A stretch of 25,960 nucleotides of DNA, from contig JAYTDF010000039.1 in NCBI GenBank assembly GCA_043736035.1, positions 1 through 25,960 on the forward strand, given 5' to 3'. The position numbers and the translations under genes were made by a program. Shown here in pieces: positions 6,678 through 16,216 of the stretch; position 1 is the stretch's first letter, and the number at the start of each line of letters is the position of its first letter. This DNA comes from Candidatus Parcubacteria bacterium. Lineage in GTDB: Bacteria; Patescibacteriota; Minisyncoccia; Phycocordibacterales; CAIZLB01. The notes under the pieces were generated by a model that was not told where the DNA came from, did no database searches, and saw only the letters and a program-made list of their open reading frames with translations.

Positions 6678-7880
6678 ATGGCACAAATAAAAACAGATAT
6701 ACAAACATTTGCAAGAATAGAGGTAGTTGGGGTTGGTGGATCAGGAAAAAACGCTACAAACCATATGATTAACTCAAAAGTTAAAGGTGTGGACTTTCTA
6801 GCTATCAATACTGATGCACAAGACCTGAACAACTCTTTGGCAACTAAGAAAATTCATATCGGAAAAAACTTGACTAAAGGATTAGGTGCTGGTATGAATC
6901 CAGAGGTGGGTAGAAATGCTGCAGAAGAGACACGAGCTGAGATCCAAGAGGCACTTAAAAATGCAGATATGGTTTTTGTTGCTGGAGGACTTGGAGGAGG
7001 AACAGGAACAGGTGCATCCCCCATCGTTGCAAAGATTGCAAAAGAGATGGGTGCACTTACTATTGGTGTAGTTACAAAACCTTTTATGTTTGAAGGGCAG
7101 AGACGTATGCGTTTAGCAGAAGAAGGTTTAGCTGAATTATCTAAATCAGTTGATGCTCTAGTTGTAGTACCAAATGACAAATTGATGGGCTCTATCTCAA
7201 AAGATACAACGGCAAAAGACGCATTTGCAATGTCTGATGAAGTATTGAAACAGGCAGTTGAGGGTATATCAGAACTGATCACAACTCCAGGAAATGTTGG
7301 CAACATAGACTTTGCAGACATCAGAGCTGTTCTAGAAAATGCTGGATCTGCACTTATGGGTATGGGTACAGCTTCCGGTGAAAACCGCGCAGTTGAAGCA
7401 GCAAAACTTGCAATCTCATCTCCACTTATCGATGTATCCATCCATGGTGCAAAAGGGGTACTCTTCTCTATAGCAGGATCAGATGATCTGACTATGTTTG
7501 AGATATCAGAAGCAGCTCGTGTCATCACTGAATCAGTTGATCCAGATGCAAAAATCATCTTTGGTACTGTGAAAGATGAAAGACTAAAGAAGAATGAAGT
7601 AAGAGTGACTGTTATTGCAGCAAACTTCCCTGACAAGCTAACAGCAGTTCGAAACATTTTTAGAGATAGAGAAAATATGGTAAGTGAATCAGTTTCAAGT
7701 CAAGATGATATGAAAAAAGATAATTCTGGAAAAATATTTAACTCAATTAGTATTAATAAGAAAGAAGAGCCTGAACTTGCTGATGACAACTCAAATATAA
7801 TGAAGCCAGCCGCTCAAGGCGAAGATGAAGATGATTGGTCAGCAGTACCAGCATTTTTAAGACGATCAAAGAATAGATAA
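6678..7880 (+). CDS. ftsZ: Cell division protein FtsZ
   Basis: GVGG, NTDAQDL, GLGAG.NPEVG, tubulin signature GGGTGTG, T7 loop NIDFAD, C-terminal VPAFLRR. Confidence 0.99.
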   Translation: MAQIKTDIQTFARIEVVGVGGSGKNATNHMINSKVKGVDFLAINTDAQDLNNSLATKKIHIGKNLTKGLGAGMNPEVGRNAAEETRAEIQEALKNADMVFVAGGLGGGTGTGASPIVAKIAKEMGALTIGVVTKPFMFEGQRRMRLAEEGLAELSKSVDALVVVPNDKLMGSISKDTTAKDAFAMSDEVLKQAVEGISELITTPGNVGNIDFADIRAVLENAGSALMGMGTASGENRAVEAAKLAISSPLIDVSIHGAKGVLFSIAGSDDLTMFEISEAARVITESVDPDAKIIFGTVKDERLKKNEVRVTVIAANFPDKLTAVRNIFRDRENMVSESVSSQDDMKKDNSGKIFNSISINKKEEPELADDNSNIMKPAAQGEDEDDWSAVPAFLRRSKNR

Positions 7881-7902
7881 TTATTTATATAGTTAAAACA
7901 TA

Positions 7903-7940
7903 AAAACACAGTTTAGAAAATAAATTGTGTTTTAGTTTTA
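7903..7940 (+). terminator. AT-rich hairpin, probable ftsZ terminator
   Basis: 13-bp stem AAAACACAGTTTA/TAAATTGTGTTTT with a GAAAA loop, T-rich tail. Confidence 0.5.
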
Positions 7941-7956
7941 TGATACAATGTAAAAT

Positions 7957-8871
7957 ATGTCACAAGAAAATATGTATGATTTAGTAATCATAGGAGGTGG
8001 ACCTGCCGGTTCTGCCGCCGCAGTATACGCTGCACGAAAAAAAATAAAGTCAGCTATCTTAACACCTGAGTTTGGCGGACAAAGTGTAGTATCTGACGAT
8101 ATACAAAACTGGATTGGAACACCTCATATATCCGGATATGAACTTGGTAAATCTTTGGAGAAACATGTGAAGGAATATCAAGGTGATATTTTGCATATTG
8201 AAAAAGGGTATGTTTCTGAAGTCACACAAAATGAAGATAAAACATTTTCTATAAAAACAAGTAAGGATCTTGTACTGCAAGCAAAAGCAGTTCTTGTAAC
8301 AACAGGAAGTGTACGACGAAAACTTGATGCAATCAATGCCGATACGTTTGAACATAAAGGTGTTACCTATTGTGCATCTTGTGATGGACCAGTTTTTACA
8401 GGGAAAGACGTTGTAGTTATCGGTGGAGGAAATGCCGCTTTTGAATCAGCACTCCAGCTCGCCGCATATTGTAAGTCTGTGAAGATTTTAAATAGAACTG
8501 ACAAATATCGAGCTGACGAGATAACGGTTGATAAAGTTATAAAAAATGAAAAGACTGTGATTATTAATAATGCTATTGTCAACGAAGTTCATGGTGAACA
8601 GTTTGTTAATGGATTAACGTATAACGATACAATAAAGCTTGATGTAGAAGGTATTTTTGTTGAGATTGGGCAAATGCCGAATACTGACTATATAGGGTTT
8701 GTAGACAAGAACCCTGCAGGTAACATTGTAGTTGACCCTCGTACACAGAAAGCTTCTGTAGAGGGCGTGTGGGCTGCTGGAGACTGTACTGATGGGTTGT
8801 ATCATCAGAACAATATCGCTGTTGGCGATGCGGTGAAGGCGCTGGAGAATATCTACGTGTGGCTCAATTAA
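7957..8871 (+). CDS. trxB: Thioredoxin-disulfide reductase (TrxB/AhpF C-terminal type)
   Basis: FAD motif IIGGGPAG, redox CASCDG, NAD(P) motif VIGGGNAA, GVWAAGD. Confidence 0.9.
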   Translation: MSQENMYDLVIIGGGPAGSAAAVYAARKKIKSAILTPEFGGQSVVSDDIQNWIGTPHISGYELGKSLEKHVKEYQGDILHIEKGYVSEVTQNEDKTFSIKTSKDLVLQAKAVLVTTGSVRRKLDAINADTFEHKGVTYCASCDGPVFTGKDVVVIGGGNAAFESALQLAAYCKSVKILNRTDKYRADEITVDKVIKNEKTVIINNAIVNEVHGEQFVNGLTYNDTIKLDVEGIFVEIGQMPNTDYIGFVDKNPAGNIVVDPRTQKASVEGVWAAGDCTDGLYHQNNIAVGDAVKALENIYVWLN

Positions 8872-9281
8872 AGAGATTTAAAATAACTATCCAATATCCC
8901 CTTAGCCTCCTCCAAATCCTTATAATTAAAAATTGTCATCCCTTTATTTCCTGACAACATCGCAGACAATCTCTTTCCTTCTTGATCTCTATATAAACAA
9001 ACAATCGGCTTCTTACCATCGGCCCATCCGAGCTCATAACCTACCCCTAGACTTGGTTGAGTTACCTCGGCCACCACAACATCTGCTTCGCTTACCCAAT
9101 CCATGTCTCGCTCATAGATAAACTGATCAGTCTTATTTTGATCTGCGGTTGGTATATTTTCAATGTCACCAATATGTTCAGTTAATACCTGACCGTGATT
9201 CTGGAGATGTTTGATAATATCCATATATAAGTCTTTATCTTCTCTCCCTGCTCGTATGGATGCCGCAAAATATATTTTCAT
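8868..9281 (-). CDS. 2'-deoxynucleoside 5'-phosphate N-hydrolase (DNPH1/Rcl-like; nucleoside 2-deoxyribosyltransferase fold)
   Basis: YFAASIRAGRED, VLTEH, ADVVVAEVTQPSLGVGYELG and LSAM match the DNPH1/Rcl family. Confidence 0.88.
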   Translation of the reverse strand: MKIYFAASIRAGREDKDLYMDIIKHLQNHGQVLTEHIGDIENIPTADQNKTDQFIYERDMDWVSEADVVVAEVTQPSLGVGYELGWADGKKPIVCLYRDQEGKRLSAMLSGNKGMTIFNYKDLEEAKGILDSYFKSL

Positions 9282-9302
9282 AATAAAATTATTTTATCAT
9301 AG

Positions 9303-9330
9303 TTGACACAAATGTGAAATTTGATAGAAT
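9303..9330 (+). promoter_or_regulatory. Near-consensus sigma70 promoter with no protein gene downstream
   Basis: TTGACA (9303-9308), 16-nt spacer, extended -10 TG-a-TAGAAT (9322-9330). Confidence 0.7.
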
Positions 9331-9336
9331 AGAAGT

Positions 9337-9388
9337 ACAAATGGGTTGTCCCGATCGTCCAGGCCTTAAAAGCCTGGATTTACATTTT
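9337..9388 (+). ncRNA. Candidate ~50-nt two-hairpin small RNA convergent with the PemK/MazF-like gene
   Basis: Starts at the expected distance from the promoter. Hairpins GGG-ttgt-CCC (9343-9352) and TCCAGGC-7-GCCTGGA (9358-9378), then a T-rich tail. Confidence 0.45.
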
Positions 9389-9775
9389 ATTAAATAAAAT
9401 ATCTACTACTTTCAATATTATTTTAATATGATCAATTTTTGATATATATCCTATTTTCTTATCCAATCTTTTTGTATCCAAAATTCTAAGTTGAGATATT
9501 AAAGCAGATTGTTCCAGATCTTTAAGTAAAACTTTTACATAATACTTATTGTCCTTATTTTTTGTACTCAAAGGTACACCCCAAAAGATGCTATTATTAA
9601 ATTTTTTTAATATTAAAACAGGTCTTCGAAAATCTTCACCTTTACCATTTTGTTCAAAACCTATATTTTCACCCAATGAACACCAATATACCTCACCCTC
9701 ATTAATAAGAGCAACATTTTCTGATTTATCAATAATTATCTTTGTTATTATCCAATCTATAAAATATTTTACCAT
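9380..9775 (-). CDS. PemK/MazF-family endoribonuclease toxin (orphan)
   Basis: GEVYWCSLGENIGFEQNG...RPVLILK...VPLST...SALISQLRILDTKRL..KIG. Start revised to ATG 9775 (MVKYF), which has TACTAT 6 nt upstream. Confidence 0.85.
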   Translation of the reverse strand: MVKYFIDWIITKIIIDKSENVALINEGEVYWCSLGENIGFEQNGKGEDFRRPVLILKKFNNSIFWGVPLSTKNKDNKYYVKVLLKDLEQSALISQLRILDTKRLDKKIGYISKIDHIKIILKVVDILFNKM

Positions 9776-9844
9776 TCTAATATAGTAAAATAAACCCAAT
9801 AAACTTCTCATAAAGAAATTCTCAAGAAACCCTAAATTTTCCAT

Positions 9845-9874
9845 AAACAAAAAAACTACCTCGATAGTAGTTTT
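9845..9874 (-). terminator. efp terminator
   Basis: Stem AAAACTAC/GTAGTTTT with a 7-nt loop and a T-run on the minus strand, just after the efp stop. Confidence 0.6.
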
Positions 9875-9879
9875 ACATA

Positions 9880-10455
9880 TTATTTCTTTGATGCCCTTTC
9901 TACATACTCTCCGGTCTCAGTATTGATCACAAGAATGTCACCCGGCTCAATAAACATCGGTGCTAATATAGTCGCTCCAGTCGCCAATGTAACAACCTTG
10001 TTTCCACCCTTGGCTGTGTCTCCACGTACTGCTGGAGGAGCTTCGGTAACAGTAAGACTTACTTTTATAGGGAGCTTGACACCAATCGGTATCTCTCCAA
10101 AATATTTAACATCAAGAACTGCATTTGGAAGGATATATTTCTTTGCATCCCCTAATAGTTCGTCTTTCAACATAAACCTATTTGATACATTATCCTCCGA
10201 ACAAAACCACCACTCCCCTTTGTTGGTAAAAAGATATTTCACTTTCTTAACTTCAATCTCAGCCTCCTCAACTTTATCAGTTGCTTGGAATGAGATCTCG
10301 ATAGTACGTCCAGACAGTAAATTTCGCATCTTAACAGCGTTTACTGGTTTTCGCATCTGTTTACGAAAGACATGATAATCTAATACTTCATAGGGTTCAT
10401 CATCGTGAATAATTGTTTTCCTTGTTACTATTTCATTGTATTCGAGCATTGCCAT
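9880..10455 (-). CDS. efp: Translation elongation factor P (atypical loop)
   Basis: EPY.V...; YLF...GEW.F; V.L.VTEAPPAVRGDTA.GG.K...L.TG..I..P.FI..GD...INT.TGEYVER. Confidence 0.95.
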   Translation of the reverse strand: MAMLEYNEIVTRKTIIHDDEPYEVLDYHVFRKQMRKPVNAVKMRNLLSGRTIEISFQATDKVEEAEIEVKKVKYLFTNKGEWWFCSEDNVSNRFMLKDELLGDAKKYILPNAVLDVKYFGEIPIGVKLPIKVSLTVTEAPPAVRGDTAKGGNKVVTLATGATILAPMFIEPGDILVINTETGEYVERASKK

Positions 10456-10534
10456 GATTCATATACTATATGCTTTTTTTGAGGGTTTTGCAAATACTAG
10501 GGCACACATTGAACCTTCCACAGTTTATAAATAT

Positions 10535-11326
10535 TTAATTAATTTTTAATGTTTTAATAAATGCCTTAGTTAAGGGACCAAAGTATCCAGATGCTGGTCT
10601 TATATTGTTTTTGATTTGAAACTTTATTAAAGCTTGTTTGGTTTGATTTCCAAAGAAAGTAGACTCGAGTCCTAAAGATCCCAGTCCTTTTTTACTCACA
10701 ATAAACCCCTGTGAATTGAGAAATTGCTGTAGATTTTTAACTTCTGGAGCTATCATGTTAACTTTGAGGTTTTTTTGAGTATTTACAAGCATAACCGCTG
10801 AACTTGGAACAGTAGAAGGTATTTTTGTTGGAGTATTAACAGTTGGCTCAGTTTTTGGCGCAAGTAAACTTGCCGGAACATATGATGAACCTCCACCGGA
10901 TGATCCCCCTCCAGAGTAAGAAGGTGTTACAACAGGTGATGCTACCACTGGAACAGGTAATGTCCAAGTCGTTGTCACACTTGTTCCTGTTGCAAAAGAA
11001 AGCCAACCAGTATTGTCATTGTAGGCAAAGCCTGAAAGTGCACCGTTTGATAGAGTTACTCGAGAAAAATCAAAATACCCAACAGACTCACTCCATGCAT
11101 ACCCAGACAGCACACCATTAGTGTTTACAACTCCATCCAAAACTAACCAGCCAGTATTGTCATTGTAGGCATATCCTGTAACTGCAGTATTGGCAACTGT
11201 TGCATTCCTAAAATCAAACCAGCCAAGTGATTCGCTCCACGCATACCCAGACATATTGGCTGCAAAAGTTGGTACCGACAGAGACAAAGTTATGATTGCT
11301 ATATATTTTTTAAATTTAAATTTCAT
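10535..11326 (-). CDS. Secreted protein: signal peptide, four 24-aa G(Y/F)A(W/Y)xxxxG(W/Y) repeats, Pro/Ser/Gly linker, peptidoglycan-binding domain
   Basis: KK-hydrophobic-TFA signal. C-terminus EVKNLQQFLNSQGF...FGNQTKQALIKFQ..NNI...GYFGPLT is PG_binding_1-like. Confidence 0.8.
   Translation of the reverse strand: MKFKFKKYIAIITLSLSVPTFAANMSGYAWSESLGWFDFRNATVANTAVTGYAYNDNTGWLVLDGVVNTNGVLSGYAWSESVGYFDFSRVTLSNGALSGFAYNDNTGWLSFATGTSVTTTWTLPVPVVASPVVTPSYSGGGSSGGGSSYVPASLLAPKTEPTVNTPTKIPSTVPSSAVMLVNTQKNLKVNMIAPEVKNLQQFLNSQGFIVSKKGLGSLGLESTFFGNQTKQALIKFQIKNNIRPASGYFGPLTKAFIKTLKIN
10994..11251 (-). repeat. ABAB intragenic repeat, 144-bp (48-aa) period
   Basis: Identical 21-mer CCAGTATTGTCATTGTAGGCA at 11007-11027 and 11151-11171. 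Protein units SGYAWSES.G and .G.AYNDNTGW alternate. Confidence 0.85.
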
Positions 11327-11453
11327 TACTAGATTATACTATATTTATTTTTTATAATGTACTTTCTATTTTACCTCACCCAAGAGTTCTTTGTAAAGTG
11401 AATGCAGAAAACTTGTATTTATTATCTATCGTGTGATATTATGAATTAATAGA

Positions 11454-11496
11454 GAAAAAAGGTTCTCTGCTCGTTGCAGTGTCAGGCCCTTTTTTC
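11454..11496. terminator. Long A-tract/T-tract-flanked hairpin (bidirectional terminator-like)
   Basis: GAAAAAAGG (11454-11462) pairs with CCTTTTTTC (11488-11496); inner CTGC/GCAG stem. Confidence 0.45.
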
Positions 11497-11525
11497 GCTT
11501 TTATACTAAACTATTTTTATAAAAT

Positions 11526-11553
11526 TTGACAATAAAATATATTTTGCTAAAAT
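11526..11553 (+). promoter_or_regulatory. Near-consensus sigma70 promoter with no protein gene downstream
   Basis: TTGACA (11526-11531), 16-nt spacer, extended -10 TG-c-TAAAAT (11545-11553). Confidence 0.7.
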
Positions 11554-11557
11554 ACTT

Positions 11558-11674
11558 ATGTAGTCTGAAGGACAGGAAATTAACAATCGGCTTGCTGCGG
11601 ACTTTGCTTTATGTAAAGTACTTATGGATGAAATGTTGCCATTTTATGGTAATTGCCGTCATCCCAGATTATAT
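11558..11674 (+). ncRNA. Candidate ~115-nt multi-stem non-coding RNA
   Basis: Closing 10-bp stem 11558-11567/11665-11674; hairpin 11601-11619; stem 11626-11631/11659-11664 enclosing hairpin 11635-11653. G.U pairs work on the plus strand only. Confidence 0.55.
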
Positions 11675-11683
11675 CTAAGTTCA

Positions 11684-12100
11684 CTACTCGTTATCGGGTA
11701 GTGTTTTTAGTTTCTTATAGTGCATTGTAACAATTTCAAAATGATCATCTATAAATTCCAAAACTATCCTTATTGATGAAACATCAATTGTTGAAATATT
11801 TTTTAGGAAATAGTGTCTATTATTTATAGTTTCAAATGAGGTGTAACTATTTAACACATTTTCTATATTATCTATAATAATATGCAATCGATATAAGATA
11901 TACTCAACATCATATTTTTCAATAAGTTCAGCTGACTTACTTTCAACAAAATGCTTTAATGCTCTTTTGGAAATGAATACATCTTTATTATTCAATTTAC
12001 AAACGAAAACCAACCCTAAAAAGTCAGCGATTAGTTCACCTTTTTGTAAATTAAGGTATTTAAATACCAGTTTTTTAACTGTGATTATATTTTTAGTGAT
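11684..12100 (-). CDS. Small hypothetical protein, candidate BECR-fold (Barnase/EndoU/Colicin/RelE-like) RNase
   Basis: Pattern vfis..alkH......helix...yflK......irivle......eIvTmH. Frame is open from 12100 (ATC) to TAG 11684; the ORF track calls TTG 12013. Fold assignment is by eye. Confidence 0.5.
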   Translation of the reverse strand: MTKNIITVKKLVFKYLNLQKGELIADFLGLVFVCKLNNKDVFISKRALKHFVESKSAELIEKYDVEYILYRLHIIIDNIENVLNSYTSFETINNRHYFLKNISTIDVSSIRIVLEFIDDHFEIVTMHYKKLKTLPDNE

Positions 12101-12164
12101 TTACAAATTTTACCAAAACCAACATAAAATCTTCATAAAAAAATTCTAAAGTTTTACCGAAGTT

Positions 12165-12779
12165 TTAATCAAGTATAAACCACCCATGATTCTTTGCATA
12201 TGTCCGTAACTTTTTATTCGGATTCACCGTATATCGGTACGTCGCCATTTTCAAAAGCGGGATATCAGAATTATGATCACTATAGGCAAAAGAACCCTCA
12301 AAGTTATACTTGGTCAACCTCTCAACCTTTTCATCCTTATAATTAATCTTTCCCAATATCCTACCAGTATACTTATTATTTTTTACCTCAAGCTTTGTGG
12401 CTGTGTACTCAGGAATATGAAAAAATTTGGCGGCATACTTTGCAATCGGTTCAAACGAAGTTGTGACCAAAATAACCTTCTTATCATATGTGTTATGTTT
12501 TTCCAACTCTTCTACTGCTTTGATATTTTTAATACCATCAAATTCTGTAAAAATAAATGCTTTCATTATCTTATCAAGTCTACTCACCTCCACACCCTCA
12601 AAAACCTTAGCCAAAGTCTTCATTTTCTTATCAATGTTTCGAGCAAAAAACAAGATAAATTTATAATAAAAAAAACGGTACGATGAAATAATTCTCCTAC
12701 GTCTTAAAACGCTCAAAACTATTTCATAACTGTTTTTTGTGATCAGTGTTTTATCTAAATCAAAGAATACATAACTCAT
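12165..12779 (-). CDS. HAD-IB family phosphatase (SerB/PGPase-like)
   Basis: FFDLDKTL (DxDxT), LVTTS (motif II), K.E.., AYSDHNSDIPLL...VNP. Confidence 0.9.
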   Translation of the reverse strand: MSYVFFDLDKTLITKNSYEIVLSVLRRRRIISSYRFFYYKFILFFARNIDKKMKTLAKVFEGVEVSRLDKIMKAFIFTEFDGIKNIKAVEELEKHNTYDKKVILVTTSFEPIAKYAAKFFHIPEYTATKLEVKNNKYTGRILGKINYKDEKVERLTKYNFEGSFAYSDHNSDIPLLKMATYRYTVNPNKKLRTYAKNHGWFILD

Positions 12780-12823
12780 AGACTAGATATTATATGCTAT
12801 TTTAAAGATTATTTACCATTGAC

Positions 12824-13561
12824 CTATTCCCAAATTTTATCCATAGTTATAGCCGCAATCTTTTTATACCGTACTATATCATCAGCATATTTTTCATCAG
12901 AGTGAAGTATTACCAAGGTTTTTTCAATTGAAATAATTTCTTTGTATGATACTTCTAATATCGGTTTTTTCCATGTTAAAACTTCAAACCAATTTATATT
13001 TCTAAAACCTTTCAATTGAACCGGAACAATATCAGTATGTGTATATTCTGCCAAAAAACCAACACCGCCTTTGACTTCACCTGGTTTAAAAGTTTCTATA
13101 CCCATTTTTCCTTCAGGGAAAATACACACAGCTTTTCCATTTTCTAAAAGCTCTATATGATTTATGAGAGATGCTTGATAGTCACGAATACCCAAGTAAG
13201 CTGAGTATGCTCCCAATAGTCTAAAAAATGACCCTCCATAAAAATGTTTTCTCCAACCAAACTTCTCATCTTGATAATGGTCACGCGTCATCGATACATA
13301 GTACATTGGCATAATAGGAATAATGAAAGGCAAACCAAAACGAACCATAAGCACGTCCATCTCACTTATATGATTTGGTGCAAACAGTATACCCTTCTCT
13401 TGTTTTTTGTATTCCTTTAACTTTTCAACCAACTCGTTCTTTCCTGATATTTTCAAGTTAAAAAATATCTTAATAAAAGACAAAACAACAACTCCAATGA
13501 TAAATTGCAGGAATATTTGTATATATTCTATATTGTGATGTTTTTGTGATCCTATACTCAT
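12824..13561 (-). CDS. Lysophospholipid acyltransferase (PlsC-like)
   Basis: FAPNHISEMD (HxxxxD), CIFPEGK, KGGVGFLA, IVPV. Confidence 0.85.
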   Translation of the reverse strand: MSIGSQKHHNIEYIQIFLQFIIGVVVLSFIKIFFNLKISGKNELVEKLKEYKKQEKGILFAPNHISEMDVLMVRFGLPFIIPIMPMYYVSMTRDHYQDEKFGWRKHFYGGSFFRLLGAYSAYLGIRDYQASLINHIELLENGKAVCIFPEGKMGIETFKPGEVKGGVGFLAEYTHTDIVPVQLKGFRNINWFEVLTWKKPILEVSYKEIISIEKTLVILHSDEKYADDIVRYKKIAAITMDKIWE

Positions 13562-13570
13562 ATATTGCTA

Positions 13571-16216
13571 TTATAGCACTTTTTTAAGATAATGTCCAGT
13601 ATAACTGTTTTTGTTGTTCGCAACCTCTTCCGGTGTTCCTTTGGCTACTATACTTCCCCCCTTATCCCCGCCTTCAGGACCTATATCTATAAGATAATCG
13701 GAACATTTTATCAAATCCATATTGTGCTCTATGACAACTACAGTGTTACCCGCTTGGACCAGTCTTTGTAGTATCTCAATCAATTTTCGTACATCATGAT
13801 AATGAAGTCCTACAGTCGGTTCATCAAGAATATATATAGTTTTTTGTACATGTGGTTTATAGAGCTCAGATGCGATCTTTACACGCTGCGCCTCCCCTCC
13901 CGAGAGAGTAGTTGCCGATTGTCCAAGCTCTAAGTATCCCAAGCCTACTTCTTGTAATGTTCTCACCCTATCATATATCTGTGGCATCTCATCAAAGAAT
14001 AGTACCGCCTCATCAACTGTCATAGTGAGAATGTCATGTATATTTTTATTTTTATACATGATTTCCAATGTCTCCTTCATAAATCTTTTACCATTACACA
14101 CATCACATTGTACATACACTGTTGGCAGGAAATGCATTTCAACCTCTATAGATCCATTTCCTTGGCAGTTTTCACAACGTCCACCTTTTACATTGAATGA
14201 AAATCGTCCAGGACCCCAAGCACGGGATTTGGCTTCTATAGTTTCAGCAAATAGATCTCTGATATGTGTAAAAGCACCTGTATAAGTTGCAGGATTTGAG
14301 CGCGGTGTTCGTCCTATCGGTGACTGATCTATCATGATAGTTCTACCAACATAGTCAGTTCCGGTAAAAGTTGTACAATTATGTATCTGACTTGTTCTAT
14401 GCTCACGATCAAGTTTTCCAAGTAAGTTTTTATACAAAATCTCATGTACAAAAGTTGATTTACCTGAGCCTGATACACCAGTAACAGTGACAAGACGACC
14501 TAGTGGCAAGTCTACGTTTAGGTTTTTTATATTGTTTGCTTTTCCTCCAGATATCTTTATAAAACCTTTATCTTGTGTACGGCGGTGTTTAGGCACCTCA
14601 ACTTCATGAGCACCGCGTAGATAGTCGAGTGTAAGTGAGCCTGTAAAAGAATCTGGGTCGGCATGTTTTTTATTTATAGGAAGTGACTTTATAGGGTCAC
14701 GAAGTAAACTCTCAAGATAACCTTGCACAACCACATTTCCTCCATCTTTTCCCGCTCTTGGACCTATATCAATAAGATAGTCCGAAGCGAGTATAGTATC
14801 CTCATCATGCTCTACAACTATAACAGTGTTGCCCATGTCTTTCAATTGTATAAGTGTTTTAATAAGCTTGTCATTATCTCTTTGATGCAAACCTATGGTT
14901 GGTTCATCAAGTACATACAGCGCCCCAACAAGACCAGAACCTAACTGTGAAGCCAACCTTATACGCTGTGACTCACCACCTGAAAGCGTGTGAGCTCGGC
15001 GATTTAATTGTAAATATTCAAGACCTACCTCTTGCATAAACTCCAGTCGAGACAATATTTCTTTCACCATAACTGTTGATATCGCCTTATCTGTTACTGA
15101 TAATTCTAAAGACAATACATAGTCGATAGCTTCATGAATTGTTTTATTTGTAAAATCAATGATACATGTTTTTCCAGGCATGTATACTTTCAACGCTTCA
15201 GGGCGCAAACGTGCACCGTTACAAATCTTACAGATTCGATTTGTAAAAAAACTATCTGTTCCTAAACCATTACATTCTGGACAAGCACCGTATGGAGAGT
15301 TAAAAGAAAATAGTCTCGGTTCGATCTCAGGAAATGAGAATCCATCGTATGGACACATGAACTTTGACGATATGAGATGTTCTTCTTTGTCTGTATATAT
15401 CCTGAGCAATCCATCCCCTTCTCGTAAGGCTCGTTCAATTGAATCATTTAATCTTTCTTTGAAACTCTGTGACGGTTCATTTATTTCTGATATGTAAAAT
15501 TGATCGATCAAAATGTCGATATCATGTTTTTTTGTTTTTGCTAATTCTATCTTCTCACGTAGTTTGTGTGCCTTTCCATCGATGCGCACTTCTTCAAAAC
15601 CTTTACCCAGATAGTCATACAACATCTGATAATATTCCCCTTTTCGACCAATAACAACAGGTGCATAAATTTTAAAAGTTTCGGAATCAACGTGTACTCC
15701 CATAATTTCTTTTTTATCTTTTAATTCTTTTTTATCAATTGAATTAATAATTGTGTGAATTGTGTCAACAATTTCTTCTTTGGATAATCTTTTTATCTCC
15801 CTATCACAGGTCAAACAATGTGGTTTTCCAACACGGGCATATAAGATACGAAGGTAGTCGTAAATCTCAGTGATTGTTGCAACGGTTGATCGAGGATTAT
15901 TTGATCTTGATTTTTGATCTATAGAAATAGCCGGAGAGAGCCCTGTGATTTCATCAACATCTGGCTTTTGCATTTGTTTTAAAAATTGTCTGGCGTACGA
16001 TGATAAAGACTCCATATATCGTCTTTGCCCTTCAGCAAAGATCGTATCGAAAGCAAGTGATGATTTTCCAGATCCAGATAGGCCTGAGATAACCGTCATC
16101 ATACCACGAGGAATAGACACATCAATACCTTTAAGGTTGTGTGTTCGAGCACCTTTCACCTGGATCATATCTAGGTCTACAGGTGAATTTTTGGTCTTTT
16201 TAGGAACATTCTTCAT
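13571..16216 (-). CDS. uvrA: Excinuclease ABC subunit A
   Basis: Two Walker A motifs (GLSGSGKS, GVSGSGKS), two LSGGE signatures, zinc fingers, EGQRRYMESLS. Confidence 0.99.
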   Translation of the reverse strand: MKNVPKKTKNSPVDLDMIQVKGARTHNLKGIDVSIPRGMMTVISGLSGSGKSSLAFDTIFAEGQRRYMESLSSYARQFLKQMQKPDVDEITGLSPAISIDQKSRSNNPRSTVATITEIYDYLRILYARVGKPHCLTCDREIKRLSKEEIVDTIHTIINSIDKKELKDKKEIMGVHVDSETFKIYAPVVIGRKGEYYQMLYDYLGKGFEEVRIDGKAHKLREKIELAKTKKHDIDILIDQFYISEINEPSQSFKERLNDSIERALREGDGLLRIYTDKEEHLISSKFMCPYDGFSFPEIEPRLFSFNSPYGACPECNGLGTDSFFTNRICKICNGARLRPEALKVYMPGKTCIIDFTNKTIHEAIDYVLSLELSVTDKAISTVMVKEILSRLEFMQEVGLEYLQLNRRAHTLSGGESQRIRLASQLGSGLVGALYVLDEPTIGLHQRDNDKLIKTLIQLKDMGNTVIVVEHDEDTILASDYLIDIGPRAGKDGGNVVVQGYLESLLRDPIKSLPINKKHADPDSFTGSLTLDYLRGAHEVEVPKHRRTQDKGFIKISGGKANNIKNLNVDLPLGRLVTVTGVSGSGKSTFVHEILYKNLLGKLDREHRTSQIHNCTTFTGTDYVGRTIMIDQSPIGRTPRSNPATYTGAFTHIRDLFAETIEAKSRAWGPGRFSFNVKGGRCENCQGNGSIEVEMHFLPTVYVQCDVCNGKRFMKETLEIMYKNKNIHDILTMTVDEAVLFFDEMPQIYDRVRTLQEVGLGYLELGQSATTLSGGEAQRVKIASELYKPHVQKTIYILDEPTVGLHYHDVRKLIEILQRLVQAGNTVVVIEHNMDLIKCSDYLIDIGPEGGDKGGSIVAKGTPEEVANNKNSYTGHYLKKVL

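Follow-up and report, generated by a model that had tools for sequence, protein, structure and literature searches.

Why should two small nuclease-type genes, close together in the genome of a Candidatus Parcubacteria bacterium, each be met at the 3' end by a near-perfect promoter and a structured RNA? The question is raised by a stretch of 25,960 nt (the window), which is contig C39 of a genome (G000) of 672 kb in 101 contigs with a G+C content of 34% and a completeness of 88%. At two of its loci, here called A and B, a promoter is followed by a folded RNA (RNA-A and RNA-B, respectively) that converges with a small nuclease-type gene placed behind a housekeeping gene, and this is the layout that an earlier interpretation of the letters alone (the sequence-only reading) had described. 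The answer that we favor, with a probability of about 0.6, is that each RNA is an antidote acting mainly as a folded, protein-binding RNA. The small RNAs are probably the antidotes of the toxins that they face, since they have strong promoters of their own and conserved folds, no protein antidote is found, and about 20 places in the genome show this layout.

Both promoters lie on the plus strand and oppose the surrounding minus-strand genes. Each matches the consensus at 11 of 12 positions and has an extended -10 box. They take the top rank in a scan of positions 7000-14500 and are the sole matches in the window to a strict pattern (TTGACA-N13-15-TGnTAnnnT), which bears out the view that they are the best two promoters of the window. 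The only two convincing plus-strand terminators between positions 7000 and 14500 come after these two promoters (9357-9379 and 11682-11703). RNA-A and RNA-B have no sequence in common, and each has paralogues of its own in the genome. The two toxin folds are unrelated as well, again as the sequence-only reading had it; we assign MazF/PemK to locus A and RelE/BECR to locus B.

That reading had also proposed that tail-to-tail pairing of such genes may be general in the lineage, and that a promoter scan should reveal whether facing promoters are enriched next to small nuclease genes. In the genome the strict pattern occurs 29 times, compared with 4 matches in the reversed sequence and 3.65 in Markov simulations, which served as the controls. 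For twenty of these promoters the next gene is met at its 3' end, and for three the orientation is the usual one. Toxin modules account for nineteen: 18 are opposite a toxin-like gene, and one drives an RNA-B copy beside a truncated toxin. A facing strict promoter was found for seven of the eight MazF-like genes (the eighth lies at a contig end), for four of the six PBECR-like genes of the B type (one more has a near-consensus promoter), for six of the nine DUF3800 genes (PF12686) and for one HicA gene. Overall, 18 of the 24 toxin-like genes are faced in this way, against about 2 of the 744 others (odds ratio about 1100, Fisher p = 2e-29, with paralogues that are not independent). Toxin-facing consensus promoters are far beyond chance, and the genes behind which the facing promoters concentrate are small, of nuclease type and from no fewer than four unrelated families.

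The generality thus held in this genome, where the scan was toxin-enriched and not spread across all genes, but the strict pattern did not carry over to the relative G014: none of its 11 strict promoters faces a MazF-like, B or DUF3800 gene. The MazF-like genes of G014 still carry RNA-A, behind slightly less canonical promoters. Hence the strict promoter rule is local to this genome and its near kin and does not extend to the whole genus. The pairing of RNA and toxin itself also holds in other genomes of the lineage, and we found no assessable intact B or MazF-like gene without a facing RNA. No promoters in the genome are stronger than those of the RNAs, which are also conserved, whereas the starts of the toxins are weak. 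Cassettes occur in several copies, with a patchy distribution among close relatives and in differing neighborhoods; only this genome and one near-identical genome have cassette neighborhoods in common.

The toxin of locus A belongs to a recognized family. Its protein matches PF02452 with 43 bits (cut-off 23.1, E = 5e-11). A phmmer search with this protein alone against the PDB gave no match, and a profile built from seven paralogues matched solved MazF/EndoA structures with an E-value of 1e-8. In the alignment, the invariant arginine R51 (in RRP) falls on the arginine of the GSEQGGVRPV motif of the MazF/EndoA chains, preceded by a five-residue insertion, and the stretch PLST falls on their AAITAQ, giving a Ser/Thr at that site. 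We take the aligned Arg and Thr positions to be the catalytic residues of MazF. The genome encodes eight MazF-like paralogues, each 30-115 nt behind a same-strand housekeeping gene (104 nt behind efp in the window), and no frame for a MazE/PemI-type protein antitoxin precedes any of the eight. All 17 sampled genomes of the genus have the family, as do 38 of 61 relatives, and a single genome can hold as many as nine copies.

The protein of locus B is more divergent, and we assign it with moderate confidence to the PBECR-like nucleases of the RelE fold. Sequence searches with the window's protein in Pfam, NCBIfam, PADLOC and the PDB gave no usable match. Its AlphaFold2 model, made from an alignment of 22 sequences, has a mean pLDDT (predicted local distance difference test) of 87, and Foldseek together with a wide structural search returned almost only ParE, BrnT, EF-Tu-dependent CdiA-CT, RelE, YoeB and colicin D, with Z-scores of 5-6.7. 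The best matches were 6xrw_C (Z 6.7, root-mean-square deviation (rmsd) 2.8 over 82 residues) and 3u97 (Z 6.1, rmsd 2.7 over 75 residues). The paralogue on contig C36 gave sub-threshold matches to PBECR3 (24.4 bits, cut-off 30) and PBECR2 (24.1 bits, cut-off 27.1). More remote relatives matched PBECR3 with E-values of 0.002-0.004, MuF_C was likewise touched below its cut-off by this set of paralogue and relatives, and in one relative of 842 residues the domain stands at the C-terminus, after an ART-PolyVal domain. Conserved in the family are the motif IS-x-R-x-LKHFVE-x-R and the residues K100, R111, E122 and H127. The family is small, with 165 clusters among 1.84 billion representatives. Within the genus 11 of 17 genomes have it, and of 400 genomes sampled from the class one does.

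RNA-B is linked to this protein family almost without exception. Searching with a covariance model (R1) built from 14 copies placed RNA-B on the opposite strand and adjoining protein B in 28 loci of relatives. The sole locus of the protein search without RNA-B was L033, where the protein match is weak. In a second set, obtained by a pattern search of species genomes and partly overlapping with the first, RNA-B was present at 26 of 26 loci, including those of distant "Nomurabacteria" proteins (27-34% identity). The genome holds three close RNA-B copies. Among 36 loci the promoter hexamer TTGACA was exact at 26 and kept at least five of six positions at 33.

The fold of RNA-B is conserved as well. 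Its minimum free energy is -44 kcal/mol (z-score -3.45). The 33-nt junction is near-invariant, and hairpin P4 is absent in short variants. Across 28 copies 84% of the alignment cells were paired; shuffles gave 65% and slid controls about 40%. Changes on both sides were seen in 33 of the 38 pairs. A candidate pseudoknot (CGGC/GCCG) was pairable in 100% of the copies and showed a single compensatory change. RNA-B overlaps the final 25 nt of the coding region of gene B, i.e. its last codons and the stop codon TAG (11684-11686), which falls inside the terminator hairpin. An A-tract precedes this hairpin in 17 of the 28 copies, and judged by their sequence these 17 hairpins can terminate both transcripts, which would then have a stretch of about 30 nt in common; the remaining 11 are not clearly two-way. 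Pairing of RNA-B with the 5' end of the toxin mRNA was also considered: an 8-nt match seen by eye, with no systematic duplex test, was lost in the paralogue on C99, and the idea was dropped.

Two orphan copies of RNA-B stand beside decayed toxins. One (C40:10238-10492) is intact, has a strict promoter and adjoins a 48-codon remnant of a B-type toxin, and the other (C83:6828-7025) has a degenerate core and adjoins a toxin remnant that is no longer recognizable. RNAs beside a truncated and a decayed toxin correspond to the decay pattern that is typical of toxin-antitoxin pairs.

RNA-A is shorter and was followed with a second covariance model (R2). Its 20 copies have the leader, a 3-bp mini-hairpin, the linker and a covarying hairpin in common; 95% were paired, compared with 84% in shuffles and at most 70% in slid controls. 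The fold has a z-score of -2.7, and the reverse strand of the region one of -3.7. The motif was found with 19 MazF-like loci, and its design is kept in other genera and families of the order, where the mini-hairpin is altered on both sides (GGC/GCC, GGA/UCC, GGCC/GGCC). TTGACA with a 16-nt spacer was present at 20 of 20 loci in relatives and the TG extension at 16 of 20. The RNA abuts the mazF-like stop codon, to whose complement the first bases of its U-rich tail correspond. In RNA-A as in RNA-B, G-U pairs outnumber A-C pairs when the promoter-side strand is read (13 to 1 and 84 to 41, respectively), which marks this strand as the functional one. The positions of both cassettes are compiled in Table 1.

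Table 1. Features of cassettes A and B, in positions of the window.
Feature	Positions	Strand	Description
RNA-A promoter	9303-9330	+	TTGACA, 16-nt spacer, TG-extended -10 box TAGAAT
RNA-A (predicted)	9337-9390	+	about 50 nt; R2 match 9335-9384, 66 bits
RNA-A anatomy		+	5' leader ACAAAU; mini-hairpin GGG-UUGU-CCC 9343-9352; 4-nt linker; 8-bp hairpin 9357-9379; U-rich tail
MazF/PemK-like endoribonuclease toxin gene	9380-9775	-	131 amino acids, ATG start; PF02452
mazF-like control region	9782-9818	-	element TTTCTTTAT-GAGAA-GTTTAT at 9799-9818; -10-like TACTAT 9782-9787
RNA-B promoter	11526-11553	+	TTGACA, 16-nt spacer, TG-extended -10 box TAAAAT
RNA-B (predicted)	11560-11708	+	about 150 nt; R1 match 11558-11714, 163 bits
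RNA-B anatomy		+	outer stem P1; junction; hairpin P2; stem P3 (GGAUGA/UCAUCC) around variable hairpin P4; terminator hairpin 11682-11703
Toxin-like gene B	11684-12100	-	138 codons; RelE/ParE/BECR fold, distant PBECR likeness
Gene B control region	12107-12182	-	-10 box TAAAAT 12107-12112, 6 nt ahead of ATC; degenerate element 12124-12142

The window's two toxins have three features in common, a direct-repeat element among them. This element, TTCTTTAT-GAGAA-CTTTAT, is common to the MazF-like, B and DUF3800 genes, about 40-55 nt ahead of their starts, often with extra half-sites at 11-nt spacing, and is followed by a -10 box and, 5-7 nt after the box, by the start codon. Strict matches numbered 22 in the genome and 3 in the control, and 11 of the 22 lie 39-67 nt ahead of listed toxin starts. 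In the mazF-like gene the TACTAT box stands 6 nt ahead of the ATG, which is a leaderless layout. Upstream of gene B the 11-nt-periodic half-sites reach position 12182 (Tandem Repeats Finder: period 11, 3.1 copies, 12149-12182). Copies of the form TTCTTTA-N5-NYTTTA also precede other small genes (C13:5605-5680, C18:9175, C31:15503, C49:535, C79:1353 and C82:4384), and the product of the gene after the copy on C13 opens with the DUF3800-like residues MTKIIYIDESG. It seems that the element marks a regulon reaching beyond the three toxin families. An ordinary leaderless gene promoter of the window provides a contrast: at 13570-13598 on the minus strand a near-consensus promoter (TGGACA, 17 nt, TG, TATAAT) ends 8 nt ahead of the ATG of an acyltransferase gene (12824-13561).

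Gene B lies 64 nt behind a HAD hydrolase gene, and its frame begins with ATC (12098-12100) right after a stop codon, six bases past the TAAAAT box. Among 21 homologues, 14 start with ATC, ATT or ATA, two with ATG and two with GTG, and the N-terminal stretch is conserved as protein. Such ATC, ATT or ATA openings after a stop codon, 5-6 nt past a -10 box, were seen at loci L002, L014, L020, L022, L026, L028, L031, L032 and others. As far as the sequences go, the frame openings of the B family imply that a leaderless mRNA is translated from a non-AUG codon. For B relatives, the starts in public gene calls often lie 10-22 residues late, as is expected if gene callers overlook a non-AUG start.

From the anatomy, conservation, covariation, linkage and genome-wide enrichment described above we infer transcription, toxicity, neutralization and a protein-binding mode as follows. 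Each locus would be a two-gene cassette of a kind abundant in this Parcubacteria lineage. The toxin gene would yield a leaderless mRNA, in gene B usually with a non-AUG start codon, from a weak promoter with a shared direct-repeat operator. The RNA gene would converge with it from a near-perfect promoter and end with its own terminator at the toxin stop codon. RNA-B would be a folded RNA that binds and neutralizes the toxin protein in a type III-like manner, as a single structured RNA with no processed repeat array. We favor protein binding because no part of the conserved core, a three-way junction that could form a pseudoknot, falls within the toxin transcript or is complementary to it. RNA-A is likely to bind protein too, and pairing with the 3' untranslated region of the toxin mRNA may contribute; RNA-A may also act as an antisense RNA, given the probable read-through of the mRNA and the RNA-A-type RNA that faces HicA. 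The cassettes may serve, as the sequence-only reading supposed, as an addiction or anti-phage strategy.

Several observations speak for folded RNA antidotes. The toxins come from recognized toxin families or folds and have no protein partners, and the linkage of RNA and toxin is near-exceptionless and always convergent. Conservation of sequence and structure among paralogues, which a cis-antisense RNA does not need, also counts for a folded-RNA antidote, and so does the presence of the same cassette layout at DUF3800 genes. Four points weigh against it. The RNA-A motif is not tied to one toxin fold, since it faces MazF-like proteins and HicA, and this is as compatible with a general module for antisense control or stability as with a protein ligand. 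For the mazF-like gene no terminator precedes the RNA-A gene, and its mRNA probably extends across the latter, so that about 50 nt of it can pair with RNA-A. In the window's copy of RNA-B no A-tract precedes the terminator, which makes antisense pairing by read-through possible there as well. Finally, protein B is assigned to its fold with moderate support (Z below 7) and stays below the cut-offs of Pfam.

A rival explanation is that the RNAs work like type I antisense RNAs, i.e. solely by pairing with the mRNA or by transcriptional collision, leading to decay or blocked expression without ever touching the protein. The convergent layout, in which the toxin stop codon is reached or covered by the 3' end of the RNA, the missing terminator of the mazF-like mRNA, the RNA-B terminators that are not clearly two-way and the occurrence of RNA-A-type RNAs opposite two toxin folds are all consistent with this. 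However, a cis-encoded RNA is complementary by construction and needs no kept sequence or fold, whereas RNA-B keeps its junction and covarying stems outside the overlap, and in RNA-A the 5' motif and the mini-hairpin persist across an order. In 17 of the 28 B cassettes only the terminator hairpin would be common to both transcripts. Moreover, the known type I toxins are small membrane peptides, in contrast to the nuclease-like proteins of 131-138 residues found here. We therefore regard a purely antisense mechanism as unlikely. It is also rather improbable that the RNA is a working partner of the nuclease (a cofactor, guide, decoy substrate or infection sensor) in the way of a retron non-coding RNA. 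The complex and highly conserved fold does suggest a sophisticated role, a view also taken of the DUF3800-associated motifs (PMC5737381), and in retrons DUF3800 also acts as an effector, together with a nucleic-acid partner (PMC7736814). Yet an antidote fits better to orphan RNAs beside decayed toxins and the lack of toxins without RNA, and strong RNA promoters combined with weak toxin signals are the classical arrangement for an antidote in excess.

The structures could also be 3'-end elements of the toxin mRNA or sites in the DNA, for instance for the recombination of cassettes, with the promoters being incidental. The reverse strand of the RNA-A region indeed folds well, and the cassettes occur in varied genomic contexts. 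But the excess of G-U over A-C pairs on the promoter-side strand, the promoter at a fixed distance in all 20 loci of RNA-A and in 33 of the 36 of RNA-B, the U-tracts on the RNA strand and the lack of arrays or flanking repeats make this very improbable. We give hardly any credence to the idea that RNA-A encodes a tiny leaderless antitoxin peptide (MGCP...). It was considered because the predicted 5' end has an AUG 4-5 nt away and genes of the lineage are leaderless, and was rejected: neither length nor sequence is conserved past codon 4, third-codon positions are invariant, which points to the RNA as the level of constraint, and other genera lack the AUG (AAACGG, AUUUGG) and yet their mini-hairpin covaries. 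With folded, protein-binding RNA antidotes as the preferred explanation, a wider and decidedly tentative idea, which we would not bet on, is that of a regulon of RNA-neutralized nucleases in Parcubacteria. It would comprise at least three unrelated families (MazF-like, PBECR-like and DUF3800) under a common operator-controlled leaderless promoter, each with its own protein-binding single-unit RNA. Such a repeat-free, convergent form of type III would be a main anti-phage arsenal in CRISPR-poor genomes of 0.7 Mb and would explain the DUF3800 motifs.

Further loci of the genome resemble the two cassettes in part. The HicA gene (PF07927) at C5:1195-1537 (L093, L127) is faced by an RNA-A-type RNA (R2, 34.8 bits) whose second hairpin is identical to that of the copy on C83. 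A 130-codon frame that ends 6 nt ahead of hicA may be a protein antitoxin; it looks HicB-like by eye and had no match in Pfam. Six DUF3800 genes, on C23, C48, C53 (two), C69 and C96 (loci L095, L099, L100, L101 and L105), are faced by RNAs behind consensus promoters, and these RNAs are of several unrelated sequence types. One of them, C53:15522-15588 on the minus strand, has a sub-threshold match to the Rfam model DUF3800-IX (28.8 bits, cut-off 36.8). Just upstream of the RNA-B promoter the window has a third small RNA candidate of about 55 nt (11437-11500, plus strand), with a TG-extended -10 box (TGaTATTAT), a weak -35 box and a fold z-score of -2.4. Two tandem homologues of it on C23 face a DUF3800 gene, one of them behind a full consensus promoter. 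No DUF3800 gene lies near the window's candidate, which may therefore be the remnant of a lost cassette. Two strict promoters aim at non-toxin 3' ends, those of a cysteinyl-tRNA-synthetase-like frame and of a 397-codon frame (C26:1871, plus strand, and C13:4801, minus strand, respectively); their transcripts had no Rfam match and may be other small RNAs.

RNA-A and RNA-B are two structured RNA classes that are absent from Rfam. At the gathering thresholds of Rfam 15 neither was matched in a search of the window, nor was either matched at E-values up to 10 between positions 9200 and 12200, with the models DUF3800-I to -XI included. A scan of the window for tRNA and tmRNA found none, and a tandem-repeat search of positions 8800-12800 revealed no repeat array and no flanking repeats at the cassettes. 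A literature search, which covered few subscription journals, returned no paper in which MazF or PBECR toxins of bacteria of the candidate phyla radiation are paired with structured RNAs that converge on them.

In type III toxin-antitoxin systems (ToxIN, CptIN, TenpIN) the toxin ToxN has a MazF/Kid-like fold and is held by a protein-binding RNA antitoxin in excess, and these systems act in abortive-infection defence. Their antitoxin is a short tandem-repeat array upstream in the toxin operon that is processed by the toxin. The cassettes described here likewise combine a predicted endoribonuclease toxin with a non-coding RNA, and the conserved cores outside the overlap suggest inhibition by that RNA. 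Unlike type III antitoxins, however, they have no repeat array but a single-unit RNA with its own promoter on the opposite strand. A convergent layout is also seen in the type I systems txpA/RatA and bsrG/SR4 of Bacillus subtilis, which are arranged tail to tail with a 3' overlap and in which the RNA has a strong constitutive promoter. Convergent genes and a strong RNA promoter are found here too. To our knowledge, type I toxins are small hydrophobic or membrane peptides and their RNAs need no conserved fold, whereas the toxins here are soluble nuclease-like proteins of 131 and 138 residues and the RNAs have conserved cores outside the overlap. Toxin A belongs to the same MazF/PemK family as the toxins of the type II systems MazEF and PemIK but has no MazE/PemI-type gene beside it. 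Toxin B resembles PBECR3, one of the PBECR nuclease domains of phage and polyvalent proteins, and in its large relative the domain is C-terminal to ART-PolyVal, the kind of place in which these nuclease domains are met; it differs from them in standing alone with an RNA partner and in scoring below the Pfam thresholds for PBECR.

If the RNAs are antidotes, RNA antitoxins extend past type I antisense RNAs and type III repeat arrays. We know the MazF, RelE/BECR-like and perhaps also the HicA families only with protein antitoxins, and these toxins would then have been re-equipped with structured RNAs across a whole lineage. The roughly 24 toxin-like genes make up about 3% of the genes in a genome of 0.67 Mb, which is much for a reduced organism to invest. 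RNA-B, whose junction is invariant and which may form a pseudoknot, is well suited to structural work.

Among published RNAs, the DUF3800-associated motifs (DUF3800-I to -XI, and also drum and skipping-rope) come nearest to the two described here; their authors had no functional hypothesis (Weinberg et al. 2017, PMC5737381). DUF3800 itself is the effector domain of type VII retrons, with a likeness to RNase H2 (PMC7736814). RNA-A and RNA-B match none of these models, and their partners are MazF-like and PBECR-like instead. Like them, the DUF3800 motifs are highly conserved, terminated structured RNAs which are tied to one nearby protein family on either strand without cis-regulatory logic, and the six DUF3800 genes of this genome have exactly the layout of the window. 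An antidote role would thus offer a testable function for RNA motifs that have been without a hypothesis since 2017.

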